From Escherichia phage Ge15: a DNA stretch of 64,000 nucleotides. Made by a program: the position numbers and the translations under genes. Positions 7,357 through 14,029 of this stretch are shown here, piece after piece (position 1 is the first letter of the stretch; each line of letters starts with the position of its first letter). The notes beneath the pieces are model-generated. The model had not been told where the DNA came from. It saw only the letters and a list, made by a program, of their open reading frames with translations, and did not search any database. The stretch lies in sequence record PP359696.1; one strand, given 5' to 3'.

Positions 7357-7692
7357 ATGTCTGAAGTACAACAGCTACCAATTCGTGCTGTCGGTGAATA
7401 TGTTATTTTAGTTTCTGAACCTGCGCAAGCCGGTGATGAAGAAGTTACAGAATCAGGACTTATTATCGGTAAACGTGTCCAAGGTGAAGTTCCTGAACTG
7501 TGTGTAGTTCACTCTGTTGGTCCTGATGTTCCTGAAGGTTTCTGCGAAGTTGGTGATTTGACTTCTCTTCCAGTTGGTCAAATTCGAAACGTTCCGCATC
7601 CTTTTGTAGCTCTGGGTCTTAAGCAGCCAAAAGAAATTAAACAAAAATTCGTTACTTGTCACTATAAAGCTATTCCGTGTCTTTATAAGTGA
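7357..7692 (+). CDS. 31: Head assembly co-chaperonin (GroES analogue)
   Basis: 111 aa ([30 protein letters not shown]...); matches recalled T4 gp31. Confidence 0.93.
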
Positions 7693-7818: not shown

Positions 7819-8067
7819 ATGATTAAACAATTACAACACGCTCTTGAACTGCAACGAAACGCATGGAATAATGGTCACGAAAACTATGGTGCATCTATTG
7901 ATGTTGAAGCCGAAGCTCTTGAAATCCTGAGTTATTTCAAACATCTGAATCCTGCTCAAACTGCATTAGCTGCTGAGCTTCAGGAAAAAGATGAACTTAA
8001 ATATGCTAAGCCACTGGCTTCTGCTGCACGAAAAGCAGTTCGTCACTTTGTGGTAACACTGAAGTAA
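7819..8067 (+). CDS. rIII: rIII lysis-inhibition accessory protein
   Basis: 82 aa (MIKQLQHALELQRNAWNNGHENYG...); position as in T4. Confidence 0.9.
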   Translation: MIKQLQHALELQRNAWNNGHENYGASIDVEAEALEILSYFKHLNPAQTALAAELQEKDELKYAKPLASAARKAVRHFVVTLK

Positions 8068-8465
8068 TTTATTGGAGAGTCACTGCCTTAGTGTGAAGTT
8101 AAAACGAGGAGCCGTCGAACTGTCTGATTAATGATTTGCGAATCATTATAGTTTTAAGACCCCGGCAGTTTTACGGTGTACCTCTTGAATGTTATTCTTA
8201 TAGCGGCAAGTGCATGCTACCCCGAGGTGATGGCCAATCGGGAGTACGCCTCAAGGCCTATATATCCATCAGTATATATCTTATCCTCGAGAAATCGAAC
8301 CCGGAACCTTTAAGCTAACGGTGTGCAACAGATAAGAGCTATAAGGTATGATGACGGGTTTATGGTTATCCTGGTCGTTAAATATTCAAAAACCTATGTT
8401 CCCCTTGAGGGCTTGCGCAGGCAATGCCAATAAGTCCTGCATTTTCATTTAAAAGAGAATTTATA

Positions 8466-8642
8466 ATGGCAAAACAAGCTAAAGCAAAGAAAGCAGTTGA
8501 AAAGAAAGTTGGTGATTCTAAACGCGCTGGCTACAAGCGTGGGTCGAACTCTCGTATCAATCAAACTGTTGAGAAGATCATGCGCCGAGCACGTGCGGTT
8601 CTTCGAGATGATGCTTCTCGTTTTGGTAAGCAGAAAGCATAA
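8466..8642 (+). CDS. Hypothetical small, highly basic protein (30.9 position)
   Basis: 58 aa from ATG 8466 (MAKQAKAKKAVEKKVGDSKRAGYKRG...); followed by a strong terminator. Confidence 0.6.
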   Translation: MAKQAKAKKAVEKKVGDSKRAGYKRGSNSRINQTVEKIMRRARAVLRDDASRFGKQKA

Positions 8643-8647
8643 GTTGA

Positions 8648-8671
8648 GGACTCCTTCGGGAGTCCTTTTTT
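8648..8671 (+). terminator. Rho-independent terminator
   Basis: ggactcc-ttcg-ggagtcc hairpin followed by TTTTTT. Confidence 0.8.
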
Positions 8672-8752
8672 ATTTTCCAAAGATTGCACAAAGTTGTTTA
8701 CAGTATAGTTCCTTTGTGATAGTATTATTTTACACAAACAAAGGAGAATAAA

Positions 8753-9121
8753 ATGAAAATCAATCTTAACTCATACATCAAAGGTAAAGATCACGACGGC
8801 TATAAAGCTATCGAAACTAAAGAACTTCAGTGGCATTTATATAAAGAACAATTTGAATTCGTAGGTTGCATGACTCCTGAAGGTCCTTCTGATGATTTCT
8901 CTTGGAAAATAATGTTAACTAACTTTTTTACTGGAGATACATACGAATTAAAAACTTTGATTCTTGGTAAAATTCGCTGTGAGACTTATGAAGATAAAGA
9001 AACTGGTTATTCTGAAGATGTTACATGGTATCAAAATGGTCGTATTACCGCTGATCTTTTGATTGAAAAAATGAAAGCCAAAGGTGAATTAAATTTAGAT
9101 AATTGGATTAAAGTTGCATAA
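8753..9121 (+). CDS. Hypothetical protein (30.8 position)
   Basis: 122-aa ORF with SD aaggag. Confidence 0.6.
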   Translation: MKINLNSYIKGKDHDGYKAIETKELQWHLYKEQFEFVGCMTPEGPSDDFSWKIMLTNFFTGDTYELKTLILGKIRCETYEDKETGYSEDVTWYQNGRITADLLIEKMKAKGELNLDNWIKVA

Positions 9122-10286: not shown

Positions 10287-10737
10287 GTTAGAGATAAGAA
10301 GCAATTTTAGATGGCCATCATGTGCATTAAGTAATTTCGCCCAATGGCCTTTTGTTATGGATGGTATCCAATTTGGAGGTCTCGAAGGATTCCTCCAAGG
10401 ATGCAAGGTGAAAAATGTTGAACAACAGCGTCGTATATTTGGGTTATCCGGGCTTGCCGCCCAACAAGCTGGAAGGTCTTATGCTAGAGCTCAGGACCGT
10501 GGGACCCTCTTCTGGCTTGGAGTTCCGTTTTCAAGATACTCCCCAGCGTGGAAAGAATTATACACAAATGCATATTTTGAAGCAGCGTTCCAAAACAAGG
10601 GCTTTCGCGATGCATTACAAGCCTCGAAAGGAAAAGTTTTGAAGCACAGCATGGCTAGTGGTCTAACAAAAGATGATACAATACTAACCGAAGCTGAATT
10701 TATTGATGTGTTAAACCTATTAAGAGACTCTCTATGA
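10273..10737 (+). CDS. Hypothetical protein (30.3 position)
   Basis: 154-aa ORF; locally GC-richer codon usage. Confidence 0.6.
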   Translation: MKMSELEIRSNFRWPSCALSNFAQWPFVMDGIQFGGLEGFLQGCKVKNVEQQRRIFGLSGLAAQQAGRSYARAQDRGTLFWLGVPFSRYSPAWKELYTNAYFEAAFQNKGFRDALQASKGKVLKHSMASGLTKDDTILTEAEFIDVLNLLRDSL

Positions 10738-11597
10738 AGCCTACTATTTTGACTGATATTGATGGAGTATGTTTAAGCTGGCAATCAGGCCTTCCTTATT
10801 TTGCTCAGAAATATAATCTTCCGTTAGAACATATTTTAAAAATGATCCAAGATGAGAAATTTATTTCTCCGGGTAAACTCTTTAATTGTGATGAAGAACT
10901 TGGTGTCAAGTTAATTGAAAAATATAATCGATCAGATTTTATTCGTTATTTGTCTCCATATAAAGATGCACTGTGTGTAATTAACAAATTAAAAGAAGAT
11001 TATAATTTTGTAGCTGTTACAGCATTGGGTGATTCTATTGACGCTCTGTTGAATCGTCAATTTAATTTGAATGCTCTTTTTCCTGGTGCCTTCTCAGAAG
11101 TAATGATGTGTGGTCATGATTCTTCAAAAGAAGAGTTATTCAAAAAGGCAAAAGAGAAATATAACGTAATTTGTTATATTGACGATCTCGCTCACCATTG
11201 CGATCATGCGAGTGAAATATTAAATGTTCCTGTTTATTGGATGGCGCGAGGAGAGCGTGACAATATTCCAAAAACCGCTCAGCGAGTTTATACATGGAAT
11301 GATGTAGAAAATAAGCTTTTTTCGCCGAAGGAAAATAAAGAAAGTTTTGATAATGAAAAAGCTATAAAAGATGTAATTGAGAAGATGGTTAAAAACGATT
11401 CTTTTCGTTGGAACACTACCTGGAGAACTCCTGGATTTAATCCGTATAATCCATATTATACACATCCATATAATCCATATTATACACACCCGTATCATAT
11501 GAATCCATTCCATACGTGGAGTTATACTAAGCCTGGTGATGCAGGGTATTTTAATAGATTTACTAGTGGTGATAATATTTTCCAAGGAGCATTCTAA
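10734..11597 (+). CDS. HAD-superfamily hydrolase-like protein with C-terminal Pro/Tyr-rich repeats (30.2 position)
   Basis: 287 aa; N-terminal HAD motif I ILTDIDGV; C-terminal NPYNPYYTHPYNPYYTHPY repeats; its last 366 bp lie inside the duplicated segment. Confidence 0.7.
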   Translation: MKPTILTDIDGVCLSWQSGLPYFAQKYNLPLEHILKMIQDEKFISPGKLFNCDEELGVKLIEKYNRSDFIRYLSPYKDALCVINKLKEDYNFVAVTALGDSIDALLNRQFNLNALFPGAFSEVMMCGHDSSKEELFKKAKEKYNVICYIDDLAHHCDHASEILNVPVYWMARGERDNIPKTAQRVYTWNDVENKLFSPKENKESFDNEKAIKDVIEKMVKNDSFRWNTTWRTPGFNPYNPYYTHPYNPYYTHPYHMNPFHTWSYTKPGDAGYFNRFTSGDNIFQGAF

Positions 11598-11644
11598 TGT
11601 TTGTCGTTCACACTATTTATGAAAATGAAGGTAATACTACACGT
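11232..11644. repeat. 413-bp direct repeat, copy 1 (3' part of 30.2 plus first 16 codons of 30.1)
   Basis: Identical by eye to 13617-14029; identity stops on both sides at sharp junctions. Confidence 0.9.
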
Positions 11645-11683
11645 CCGTATAATCCATATTATACACATCCATATAATCCATAA
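11597..11683 (+). pseudogene. Truncated 30.1 start fused to repeat-derived sequence
   Basis: MFVVHTIYENEGNTTR (identical to the start of ORF 13982) followed by PYNPYYTHPYNP and a stop; reading frame broken by the insertion junction at 11644/11645. Confidence 0.7.
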
Positions 11684-12108
11684 TTTAATCCGTATAATCC
11701 ATATTATACACATCCTATAAAAAATTAAAATTAACCACAATAAGCGAATTGATTAAAAATATTTATTGTTCATTATCCGTCAGTAATCATCCCGGGCAAA
11801 TGCCCGGGAATTATTCTAGGATTATTTTCTTTGTTAAAAAAGACAAACGGTATTAACTGATGTATTTACTATTTACCGCTCCCTGCAGGGGGGATTATCA
11901 GAATCCGCGGTTATTCATTATTTATATACATTCAATAAAAAAGTAACCTCATAAAAAATCCTGTACTCACAGGGTGATGCGGGATAACTGACGTAAGGAG
12001 TGCTGCAGGGATTTGATTAGACTGGCCCCCTGAATCTCCAGACAACCAATATCACTTAAATAAGTGATAGTCTTAATACTAGTTTTTAGACTAGTCATTG
12101 GAGAACAG

Positions 12109-12474
12109 ATGATTGATGTCTTAGGGCCGGAGAAACGCAGACGGCGTACCACACAGGAAAAGATCGCAATTGTTCAGCAGAGCTTTGAACCGGGGATGAC
12201 GGTCTCCCTCGTTGCCCGGCAACATGGTGTAGCAGCCAGCCAGTTATTTCTCTGGCGTAAGCAATACCAGGAAGGAAGTCTTACTGCTGTCGCCGCCGGA
12301 GAACAGGTTGTTCCTGCCTCTGAACTTGCTGCCGCCATGAAGCAGATTAAAGAACTCCAGCGCCTGCTCGGCAAGAAAACGATGGAAAATGAACTCCTCA
12401 AAGAAGCCGTTGAATATGGACGGGCAAAAAAGTGGATAGCGCACGCGCCCTTATTGCCCGGGGATGGGGAGTAA
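12109..12474 (+). CDS. insC: IS2 OrfA (InsC) transposase DNA-binding subunit
   Basis: 121 aa [56 protein letters not shown]...; A6G slippery motif near the 3' end. Confidence 0.9.
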
Positions 12475-12480
12475 GCTTAG

Positions 12481-13143
12481 TCAGCCGTTGTCTCCGGGTG
12501 TGCCAAACGTGTTTACCGGATCATGCGCCAGAATGCGCTGTTGCTTGAGCGAAAACCTGCTGTACCGCCATCGAAACGGGCACATACAGGCAGAGTGGCC
12601 GTGAAAGAAAGCAATCAGCGATGGTGCTCTGACGGGTTCGAGTTCTGCTGTGATAACGGAGAGAGACTGCGTGTCACGTTCGCGCTGGACTGCTGTGATC
12701 GTGAGGCACTGCACTGGGCGGTCACTACCGGCGGCTTCAACAGTGAAACAGTACAGGACGTCATGCTGGGAGCGGTGGAACGCCGCTTCGGCAACGATCT
12801 TCCGTCGTCTCCAGTGGAGTGGCTGACGGATAATGGTTCATGCTACCGGGCTAATGAAACACGCCAGTTCGCCCGGATGTTGGGACTTGAACCGAAGAAC
12901 ACGGCGGTGCGGAGTCCGGAGAGTAACGGAATAGCAGAGAGCTTCGTGAAAACGATAAAGCGTGACTACATCAGTATCATGCCCAAACCAGACGGGTTAA
13001 CGGCAGCAAAGAACCTTGCAGAGGCGTTCGAGCATTATAACGAATGGCATCCGCATAGTGCGCTGGGTTATCGCTCGCCACGGGAATATCTGCGGCAGCG
13101 GGCTTGTAATGGGTTAAGTGATAACAGATGTCTGGAAATATAG
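12481..13143 (+). pseudogene. insD: IS2 OrfB (InsD) catalytic region, N-terminally truncated and out of the frameshift frame
   Basis: Open frame contains ...[41 protein letters not shown]...[12 protein letters not shown]; opens only after a TAG at 12478-12480 and is in the same phase as orfA instead of -1. Confidence 0.8.
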
Positions 13144-13616
13144 GGGCAAATCCAATAAACAATTGGAATTTACTTCCATTGATCTGTTTACTCAGTGGTT
13201 GTCACTTTTATCGAGAAAGGTTTGCAGAACGCGGGTTTTTTTATAAGGTTCCTGATGTACTGAGGGATTATTTATCAGCTATACCGCTGGAAATAAATGA
13301 AAAGGCACGATACAAACCCGGCATCGCTAACTATCACAATATCATCACATGTGGTTTTTCAACGTTGTTACCCTATATAAGGCACGGCACCATGACAAAT
13401 ACGGGTATTCGCGCCGATAACAACTTCACCTGCAGTTTCATCAATAATTACCTGGTCTGCAATCTGAATATTTTTCTCTTTAACATTAAGCTTCAGATAG
13501 TTTTTCAGTTCCTGTGACAGAAGGTTGGGAATAAGCGGTTGACGCTTCCACCAGTGCGGAATAGCGGGTGGGTTTGTCGCGCTGAGGTTCGCGTCCAGTA
13601 AAAAAGGCAATAAGTC

Positions 13617-14029
13617 GTTTATTGGATGGCGCGAGGAGAGCGTGACAATATTCCAAAAACCGCTCAGCGAGTTTATACATGGAATGATGTAGAAAATAAG
13701 CTTTTTTCGCCGAAGGAAAATAAAGAAAGTTTTGATAATGAAAAAGCTATAAAAGATGTAATTGAGAAGATGGTTAAAAACGATTCTTTTCGTTGGAACA
13801 CTACCTGGAGAACTCCTGGATTTAATCCGTATAATCCATATTATACACATCCATATAATCCATATTATACACACCCGTATCATATGAATCCATTCCATAC
13901 GTGGAGTTATACTAAGCCTGGTGATGCAGGGTATTTTAATAGATTTACTAGTGGTGATAATATTTTCCAAGGAGCATTCTAATGTTTGTCGTTCACACTA
14001 TTTATGAAAATGAAGGTAATACTACACGT
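13617..14029. repeat. 413-bp direct repeat, copy 2
   Basis: Identical by eye to 11232-11644. Confidence 0.9.
13626..13982 (+). pseudogene. 5'-truncated duplicate of the 30.2 3' region
   Basis: Encodes the same 118 C-terminal residues as ORF 10734-11597 (MARGERDNIPKTAQRVYTW...); lacks the HAD N-terminal domain and its own expression signals. Confidence 0.75.

Follow-up and report, generated by a model that had tools for sequence, protein, structure and literature searches.

The 398-nucleotide (nt) gap between the genes rIII and 30.9 of Escherichia phage Ge15 (sequence record PP359696.1) harbors, as judged by covariation among its relatives, a self-contained structured RNA domain, which we term E. 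The analyzed stretch of 64,000 nt (the window) represents a Tequatrovirus, i.e., T4-like, genome in the orientation opposite to standard T4. Within it, the gap spans positions 8068-8465 and E occupies 149 nt of the plus strand (8197-8345), counted from closing stem to closing stem. The gap is shared with smaller modules, which are M4 and A2 upstream and M2, M3 and M5 downstream of E. A preliminary description of the window, made from the letters alone, had proposed that the gap is either a structured non-coding RNA or a foreign remnant. Both readings find support in our data, as the core of the gap is non-coding and backed by covariation on the plus strand, and as T4 lacks almost exactly the stretch of E, which is common to otherwise unrelated phages. 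E has no counterpart in Rfam 15, and the GenBank records examined do not annotate it as RNA; we regard it as a new family among the orphan structured RNAs already known from phages. With moderate confidence we favor the reading that E is an autonomous folded RNA that would bind a specific partner.

The helices of E were derived by hand from divergent copies and counted afterwards in an alignment of 20 sequences (A5). The 46 base pairs of the resulting model are 94.4% paired, and 31 of them show a compensatory change, compared to 6-14 in slid controls. The pairing score was matched by none of 500 shuffles. An earlier model of 38 pairs had already yielded 20 compensatory pairs versus 2-6 in slid controls. 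E therefore is a conserved structured RNA by our operational definition, that is, an RNA whose helices are kept by compensatory substitutions well above controls. A covariance model of E (R1) identifies a single copy in the window with 164.9 bits (E-value 1e-34). Moreover, G·U outnumbers A·C by 44 to 6 cells in the helices, and thus the folded molecule is the plus-strand RNA.

E is closed by the stem P0 of 8 base pairs (bp), which joins 8197-8204 (CUUAUAGC) to 8338-8345 (GCUAUAAG). All eight pairs of P0 carry compensatory changes; the inner five are well kept and the whole helix is 80.6% paired in A5. Versions found in relatives include UAAAC/GUUUA, CAAACAGC/GCUGUUUG and AAUUGUAG/CUACGAUU. P0 opens on a four-way junction that has no unpaired linker nucleotides. 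Arm 1 (8205-8258) begins with the invariant 3-bp helix P1 (GGC 8205-8207 and GCC 8256-8258), which is followed by an invariant internal loop formed by AAGUGCAU (8208-8215) and CUCAAG (8250-8255) and by the 12-bp helix Pa (8216-8227 and 8234-8249) with bulges at A8236-A8237, A8243 and C8247. In A5, Pa is 93.4% paired and seven of its 13 alignment pairs show a compensatory change, and the nucleotides GGCAAG.GCAUG and GGCCUA of the arm 1 loop are invariant in all 20 sequences. Arm 2 is the hairpin Pb (UAUAUA 8259-8264 and UAUAUA 8273-8278), whose 6 bp enclose an 8-nt loop; it is 100% paired with compensatory changes in four of six pairs. Arm 3 (8279-8337) consists of helix Pc (8279-8285 and 8331-8337; compensatory changes in six of seven pairs) leading into a three-way junction with Pd and Pe. 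Hairpin Pd (8287-8298) carries a GAAA loop in the window copy and compensatory changes in all four pairs. Pe (8299-8303 and 8319-8324; two of five pairs) is capped by the near-invariant 15-nt loop GAACCUUUAAGCUAA (8304-8318), within which phage EcS1 (locus L064) has an additional small hairpin. The joining strand GCAACA (8325-8330) is near-invariant as well, and the arm 3 motif GCUAAC.GUG.GCAAC is invariant. Altogether, A5 contains 47 invariant columns, located largely in loops and junctions.

Arms 1 and 2 are tied together by a 6-bp kissing loop, according to the sequence comparison. The apical loop of Pa (UGAUGG, 8228-8233) is the perfect Watson-Crick complement of the loop core of Pb (CCAUCA, 8266-8271), and this holds over 6 nt in 23 of 23 distinct sequences. 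Five co-varying versions of the interaction exist, which are CGAUGG/CCAUCG, UGAUGG/CCAUCA, CAAUGA/UCAUUG, UGCAUU/AAUGCA and CUAUGG/CCAUAG. An alternative in which the tip of Pa forms a small helix capped by GG/CC and including a U·G pair was dropped in favor of the kissing-loop model.

The gap could instead encode a small protein, for example from the 60-codon frame at 8136-8318, or serve a DNA-level function, such as that of an origin, a site of recombination or a cluster of promoters. Short open reading frames (ORFs) do occur in the window copy, and several GenBank records annotate 'hypothetical proteins' over the segment. However, each of the six frames across the core contains 1-5 stops in every one of the 20 homologs, and the length differences among homologs are often not multiples of three. 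The preliminary description had noted the lack of a convincing ORF, and a conserved protein-coding gene was likewise not found in the relatives. The excess of G·U over A·C indicates one folded RNA strand rather than duplex DNA, our simple scans called neither a promoter nor a terminator inside 8068-8465, and none of the known middle promoters of T4 maps between rIII and 30.9 (PMC2988021). We therefore disfavor a small protein or DNA-level signal and regard it as the least probable of the explanations considered here. As a separate observation on the database entries, several T4-like GenBank records label the spacer or 30.9 as 'glycogen branching enzyme', or as a duplicate 'lysis inhibition accessory protein', or place up to three 'hypothetical proteins' there; these look like automatic-annotation errors over non-coding RNA.

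To trace the distribution of E, we compared phage records by blastn. E alone was found in 407 phage records, each with a single copy, and the rIII-30.9 region in 1082. E is present in about 38% of the phages that have this locus and is absent from T4, T6 and RB69. Its carriers span many genera of the Tevenvirinae and include part of Tequatrovirus as well as Dhakavirus, Mosigvirus-like phages, Jiaodavirus, Karamvirus, Kanagawavirus, Moonvirus, Roskildevirus and an Aeromonas phage; individual examples are Shigella phage SP18, Citrobacter phage Merlin and Erwinia phage Cronus. In the T4-like loci whose flanks were examined, E is always situated between rIII and 30.9. Relative to T4, the window contains an extra ~155 nt at about 8193-8347, and the stretch missing from T4 coincides almost exactly with the segment of E from stem to stem. 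This extra piece is 88-91% identical in Kosakonia phage 305 (Kanagawavirus) and Klebsiella phage JD18 (Jiaodavirus), the remaining spacers of which are largely unalignable with the window. Between genera, E is 76-91% identical, compared to 66-77% for rIII and 58-89% for 30.9, and in phage UPEC01 E is 100% identical within surroundings of 1.07 kb that are only 80.5% identical. RB69 carries an unrelated insert of ~52 nt (AUUUUGUACUAUCACGCGUCAGAAAAAGGUUAUCUGUCUAAGUCGUGGUUGG; locus L219, about 8455-8510, minus strand) exactly at the A2/M2 junction that E uses elsewhere, and therefore this junction is a recurrent insertion site. Taken together, these comparisons identify E as an accessory insertion/deletion element that is horizontally exchanged and dispensable.

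Extending the search, a metagenome scan returned 14 true matches, all of them close T4-like copies. Viral contigs were scanned with exact patterns covering the full element, its 3' half and its 5' half; the 3' motif added three members (L037, L064, i.e., phage EcS1, and L077), and the looser half-pattern scans revealed no divergent members beyond the known set. No match to E was obtained by blastn in 5,426 complete E. coli genomes, and 72,556 plasmids gave only four short, non-significant matches (best E-value 0.4). A pattern scan of 185,579 species genomes returned two matches, both of which failed the covariance model. An obligate partnership of E with gp30.9 was rejected, as 30.9 homologs occur in 1005 records, all from T4-like phages, versus 407 for E, and as T4 has 30.9 without E.

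The dispensability of E, illustrated by T4, T6 and RB69, and its location at a hotspot where RB69 carries another insert would also be expected of a selfish or neutral foreign remnant that hitch-hikes by recombination between modules and serves no phage function. Yet E is more conserved across genera than the flanking protein genes and is retained in distant phage families. Moreover, 31 compensated pairs together with five co-varying versions of the kissing loop are a signature of sustained selection on the fold. A neutral remnant is thus disfavored, and we consider it highly improbable.

Three genomic contexts provide insights into how E might be produced. In the Grimontviridae phage PKM.Lu.22.1 (76 kb), E lies between two early-region genes, with the promoter-like sequence TTGACG-18-TAAATT just upstream and a strong intrinsic terminator ~43 nt downstream. 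In Slopekvirus, E is the last feature of the uvsY operon, which converges on uvsW; no gene is annotated downstream of E on its strand, where only a short ORF without annotation is present, which starts with GTG inside E and runs for 39 codons. Several T4-like genera have the start of E only a few bases from the stop codon of rIII, with other modules lying between E and 30.9. Because of these contexts, i.e., the promoter and terminator of PKM.Lu.22.1, the operon end of Slopekvirus and the rIII-proximal placement in T4-like phages, we read E as an autonomous RNA rather than as a leader element. The presence of its sister modules A2, M2 and M4 between transfer RNA (tRNA) genes of the phages LTH01 and TSP7_1 was also counted for autonomy.

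The same contexts allow a riboswitch-type cis-regulator to be weighed, in which E, placed in the leader of the gene that follows (30.9 in T4-like phages), would bind a ligand as an aptamer and control read-through or translation via the hairpins that follow. As is typical of aptamers, several helices of E meet at a junction, a kissing loop provides a long-range contact, and nucleotides of the junctions and loops are invariant. The order of E, intrinsic terminator and gene in PKM.Lu.22.1 corresponds to the classic layout of a transcription-terminating switch and is the sole supportive case for such a placement; furthermore, the U-tailed hairpin M5 lies between E and the start of 30.9 in T4-like phages. 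Against a riboswitch, the genes downstream of E differ between contexts, and in Slopekvirus none is annotated on the same strand, with only the 39-codon ORF beginning inside E. Genera differ in whether E or M2 comes first, and E lies 120-200 nt away from 30.9, with other modules in between. T4, T6, RB69 and about 60% of the relatives keep 30.9 and its leader hairpins without E. The placement expected of riboswitches in general was thus not found, with downstream genes that differ or are not annotated and a module order that varies. A pairing alternative to the closing stem that would involve a terminator was not seen by eye in the compared flanks, where no formal search was made, and no known riboswitch model of Rfam 15 was matched. 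Overall, we consider a riboswitch unlikely.

A further option is cleavage of the polycistronic transcript between rIII and 30.9, for which E would serve either as a self-cleaving ribozyme or as an obligatory signal for RNA processing. Phage-borne self-cleaving ribozymes usually occur in varied contexts and in sense orientation and are not tied to one gene family. The contexts of E are similarly varied (intercistronic, at the 3' end of an operon and apparently stand-alone), always follow the orientation of the neighboring genes and involve no fixed gene family. The active site of the natural hairpin ribozyme is built from two loops on arms of a four-way junction, and the two conserved loops in different arms of the junction of E are reminiscent of it. 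In addition, the sister modules reside in tRNA arrays, where processing is the rule. However, no ribozyme family of Rfam 15 matches even at an E-value of 10, the 149 nt of E exceed most small self-cleavers, and no conserved candidate cleavage site was identified. This role appears even less likely to us than a riboswitch.

Returning to E as an autonomous partner-binding RNA, we propose that it would act as a folded RNA and neither through a base-pairing seed nor as DNA. Its invariant loops and junction strands probably create a pocket in which a protein or small ligand would be specifically bound, and the four-way junction and the kissing loop probably hold the nucleotides of this pocket in place. 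In T4-like phages, E would be made as part of the rIII transcript, and in PKM.Lu.22.1 it may be produced from a promoter-terminator unit of its own. By analogy with the rnaC and rnaD RNAs of T4, E probably persists as a stable, compact RNA after the surrounding messenger RNA (mRNA) has been processed. More tentatively, E might represent the aptamer or catalytic core of an unrecognized class of functional RNA that phages exchange. Such an RNA could be a new riboswitch or ribozyme class and could equally be a decoy that binds and neutralizes a host protein, e.g., an RNA- or tRNA-targeting defense component, and the rIII-30.9 spacer, together with the inserts in tRNA arrays, would then be a 'toolbox' locus of such RNAs.

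Several points weigh against this proposal. E is missing from all three standard model phages (T4, T6 and RB69), so that published T4 data are silent on it. In T4-like phages, E is bracketed by neither a promoter nor a terminator, and hence a purely cis-acting role within the rIII-30.9 mRNA is conceivable. The promoter-like site of PKM.Lu.22.1 matches the consensus at 9 of 12 positions, and its predicted start falls inside the closing stem. The folding energy is ordinary, with z = -1.39 for E and an equally unremarkable z = -0.97 for the whole gap, for which folding had been suggested as a check; the case for structure is therefore one of covariation and evolutionary evidence. P1, with its 3 bp, and the proposed pocket are invariant and thus beyond the reach of covariation.

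Searches for a known identity of E were negative. Among the 4227 covariance models of Rfam 15, none matched within 8068-8465 even at an E-value of up to 10, in line with the preliminary description, which had recognized no known family by eye; at gathering thresholds, the whole window gave no match either. For the divergent copies of E (Cronus, PS49, PKM.Lu.22.1 and Slopekvirus) and the modules of LTH01 and TSP7_1, Rfam returned annotated tRNAs only (E-value up to 5). ARAGORN predicted no tRNA or transfer-messenger RNA gene in the window. A tRNA or tRNA-like identity was dismissed, since E, although built on a four-way junction, has unsuitable arm lengths, joins arms 1 and 2 by the kissing loop and lacks a T-loop, and since the tRNA model of Rfam is silent on it. 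Homology to rnaC and rnaD was rejected as well: model R1, run with filters off on the 69.5-74.5 kb region of T4, reached 5.2 bits at best and did so outside both genes. Words resembling RNase P RNA (GUGCAACAGA, CAAGGCC and GAUGGCC) and a likeness to the SAM-I core noticed by eye had no model match and were dropped. A small-RNA seed role of the 15-nt Pe loop was rejected, as complementary sites in the window are not enriched (5 versus 3.3 expected). TATAAT-like words ahead of E in Cronus and in locus L016 coincide with the 5' strand of the closing stem and are not credible as promoters. Full-text literature, queried by topic and by six literal sequence fragments, contained no description of E, and the text of a large survey of viral RNA motifs does not mention T4-like phages (PMC10690425).

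The gap that contains E is the second-longest stretch of the window without an ATG-started ORF of at least 50 codons, which agrees with its earlier portrayal as unusually long. A GC content of 47-50% had been ascribed to it, which does not hold for the whole gap (42.0%, versus a window mean of 36.4%; ~8% of equally long windows equal or exceed this value) but does for the 138-nt core at 8203-8340 (49.3%, within the top 2.4% of 138-nt windows). Only short ORFs are found inside the gap. It is flanked upstream by rIII (7819-8067, plus strand), an ORF of 82 amino acids that matches phrog_1457 ('lysis inhibition; accessory protein', E-value 6.7e-44), and downstream by 30.9 (8466-8642, plus strand), which encodes a very basic protein of 58 amino acids (phrog_1427, E-value 2.3e-31) in the form annotated in the T4 RefSeq record. 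The ribosome-binding site of 30.9 lies around 8452-8457. The T4-like neighborhood further includes gene 31 (7357-7692) and gene 30.8 (8753-9121), both on the plus strand.

Comparison of the spacers reveals a row of small structured-RNA modules that shuffle independently and lie on the plus strand, as do rIII and 30.9. M4 (8080-8105), read by eye, is a bulged-U hairpin (CAC-U-GC, loop CUUA, GUGUG) with the tail AGUUAAAAC. Other T4-like genera show compensatory changes in it by eye (CGC-U-AC...GUGCG and UGC-U-AC...GUGCA), and M4 also follows E in PKM.Lu.22.1. Two further matches to the M4 pattern occur in the window, both outside the gap. A2 (8106-8193) is a long irregular hairpin domain with the tail UUGAAUGU and contains the helices GAGG 8106-8109/CCUC 8181-8184, GCCGU/ACGGU and AACUG/CAGUU. 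In an alignment of seven sequences (A7), its 21 pairs are 99.3% paired, with four compensatory changes compared to 0-1 in slid controls. The inverted repeat that had been reported at 8128-8149 was recovered as an 8-bp hairpin of TAATGATT (8129-8136) and AATCATTA (8141-8148) with a TGCG loop. It belongs to A2 and not to E, and its pairing is maintained in LTH01, a distant phage, through a single compensatory change and a single wobble. A2 is also present in T4 and RB69.

Downstream of E, M2 (8346-8398) forms a hairpin (AUGACG 8351-8356 and UGGUCGU) followed by the A-rich linker CGUUAAAUAUUCAAAAA and by AACC, which can pair with GGUU in the loop as a candidate H-type pseudoknot. In alignment A6, the stem is 89.6% paired with three of six pairs compensatory, and the pseudoknot stem is 72.5% paired with two of five, in an alignment that is itself imperfect. 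The M2 stem is thus supported by the comparison, while the pseudoknot is only suggestive. M2 also occurs in T4, RB69 and LTH01; it is found upstream of E in JD18 and downstream in the window and Cronus. M3 (8398-8417) is a putative GC-rich hairpin ((G)UUCCCC-UUGA-GGG, then CUUGCG) that is single-copy in the window and kept in T4, which lacks E. In many genera, Slopekvirus among them, a version of M3 with GUACCC-loop-GGGGCUUG is located after E. M5 (8417-8450) is a hairpin (GCAGG 8417-8421 and CCUGC 8436-8440) with the U-rich tail AUUUUCAUUU just before the ribosome-binding site of 30.9. It was not called by the simple terminator scan, and in other genera it is replaced by GAGAG/CUCUC or by GGGAGC/GCUCCC, the latter with a much longer insert.

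A long-range pairing of CCTCAAGG (8249-8256) with CCTTGAGG (8403-8410) had also been proposed. Both motifs are present at these positions, but their complementarity is not kept in relatives, as seen in Kosakonia phage 305 (CCUCAUGG versus CCCCUAGAGGG), locus L011 (CCUUAUGG versus CCCCUUGAGGG) and JD18 (CCUCAAGG versus CCCUUAGGGG). CCTCAAGG is the invariant internal loop of E and CCTTGAGG the loop region of M3, which T4 keeps without E. We treat the pairing as a chance match that is not conserved.

The modules are also found beyond the rIII-30.9 locus. A2 and M2, which are side by side in T4, are likewise adjacent in the Vequintavirinae phage LTH01 (locus L135, 700-835), just upstream of two tRNA genes. 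In the Phapecoctavirus TSP7_1 (locus L136, 700-785), M4 and a minimal A2 fill the spacer between tRNA-Gln and tRNA-Pro. Because of tRNA processing, these modules would be released as small RNAs. Their occurrence suggests a wider family of small non-tRNA RNAs in phage tRNA arrays. The LTH01 record additionally contains an unannotated tRNA just upstream of the annotated tRNA-Met (L135, 862-940; 35.8 bits with the tRNA model of Rfam).

The transcription unit that holds the gap is closed between 30.9 and 30.8 by a terminator and a promoter at 8646-8725. The strong intrinsic terminator (8646-8667, plus strand) is formed by the hairpin GAGGACUCC-UUCG-GGAGUCCUU and a U-run; it gave a weak, sub-threshold Rfam match to Atu_C8, which reflects terminator similarity only. 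It is followed by the early-type promoter TTTACA-17-TAGTAT (8697-8725, plus strand). A PeSL unit consists of a terminator stem-loop and an early promoter (TTTACW-N17-TAYWAT in the T4 group), and PeSLs are short conserved non-coding cassettes at insertion/deletion sites of T4-like phages (PMC4122927) that are thought to promote modular shuffling (Comeau 2014, PMC4122927). The layout at 8646-8725 fits this scheme and the T4-type promoter consensus (PMC4122927). An assignment of the gap itself as a PeSL cassette was rejected, as no promoter-like or terminator-like site lies within 8068-8465.

Elsewhere in the window, a shortened copy of the insertion sequence IS2 was found at 12027-13146 in this lytic T4-like genome (about 1120 nt versus about 1330 nt for IS2). 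It has 33-nt terminal inverted repeats (12027-12059 and 13114-13146), an intact InsC-like ORF ending at 12474 and an InsD ORF of only 206 amino acids (12523-13143). Its identity to the IS2 copies of Stx and SfX prophages is 99.6%. In the phage collection, none of the T4-like records has the element at this site, and their best matches cover the flanks only. The copy lies within an extra segment of ~2.4 kb (11500-13982), at whose borders the 3' end of the gene 30.2 homolog occurs as a direct duplication: the ORF at 13626-13982 repeats the C-terminus of the ORF at 10734-11597, and 11500-11515 equals 13885-13900. This segment could be a rearrangement acquired in a host or an assembly artefact. 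The gene 30.2 homolog itself (10734-11597, 287 amino acids) starts with a DIDGV motif and looks HAD-phosphatase-like; it ends in tandem NPYNPYYTHPY peptide repeats that are encoded by a 24-nt DNA repeat.

Taken together, several features of E are those of a functional RNA that has a defined fold in three dimensions. Forty-seven positions are invariant, helices meet in a four-way junction and the kissing loop co-varies; the architecture is as elaborate as that of riboswitch aptamers, and E is more strongly conserved than its protein-coding neighbors. Its absence from T4, T6 and RB69 explains why E escaped notice in phages as well studied as the T4-like ones. E behaves like an accessory module passed between phage families, a pattern shared with host-takeover and counter-defense genes. 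Natural deletion variants such as T4, together with carriers among therapeutic phages of Klebsiella, Shigella, Yersinia and E. coli, make E directly testable. The rIII-30.9 spacer and the similar inserts between phage tRNA genes are thereby recast as arrays of small-RNA modules and not as filler.

Among known systems, the closest are the species 1 and 2 RNAs of T4, rnaC and rnaD. Like E, these structured RNAs of about 120-140 nt are encoded by a phage and have no assigned function; they are co-transcribed with other genes and presumably released by processing. They sit in the tRNA cluster, as the sister modules A2, M2 and M4 do in other phages, whereas E follows rIII outside that cluster. They share neither sequence nor structure homology with E, and R1 scores at most about 5 bits across the region of T4 that contains the tRNAs, rnaC and rnaD. 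Furthermore, rnaC ends in a T-arm-like GGUUCGAAUCC motif as seen by eye, while ARAGORN detects no tRNA-like feature in E.

Lysine, purine and SAM-I riboswitches are built on a closing stem and a multi-way junction, have two neighboring arms in contact through a kissing loop or pseudoknot, and concentrate their most conserved nucleotides in junctions and internal loops. E appears alike in architecture only, as it matches none of their Rfam models (E-value up to 10) and has no consistent downstream gene or expression platform. With the four-way-junction hairpin ribozyme and small phage ribozymes, E would share a junction able to unite two conserved internal loops and varied sense contexts; unlike the small self-cleaving ribozymes, it is larger, matches no model and has no identifiable cleavage site. 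PeSLs, finally, are mobile regulatory cassettes of T4-type phages, as Arbiol and coworkers reportedly described in 2010. No module of the gap has a terminator and promoter, and the sole PeSL-like unit is the one at 8646-8725 after 30.9. The modules of the gap likewise change their order and content between genera, and E differs from a PeSL in being far larger and in its predicted tertiary structure.

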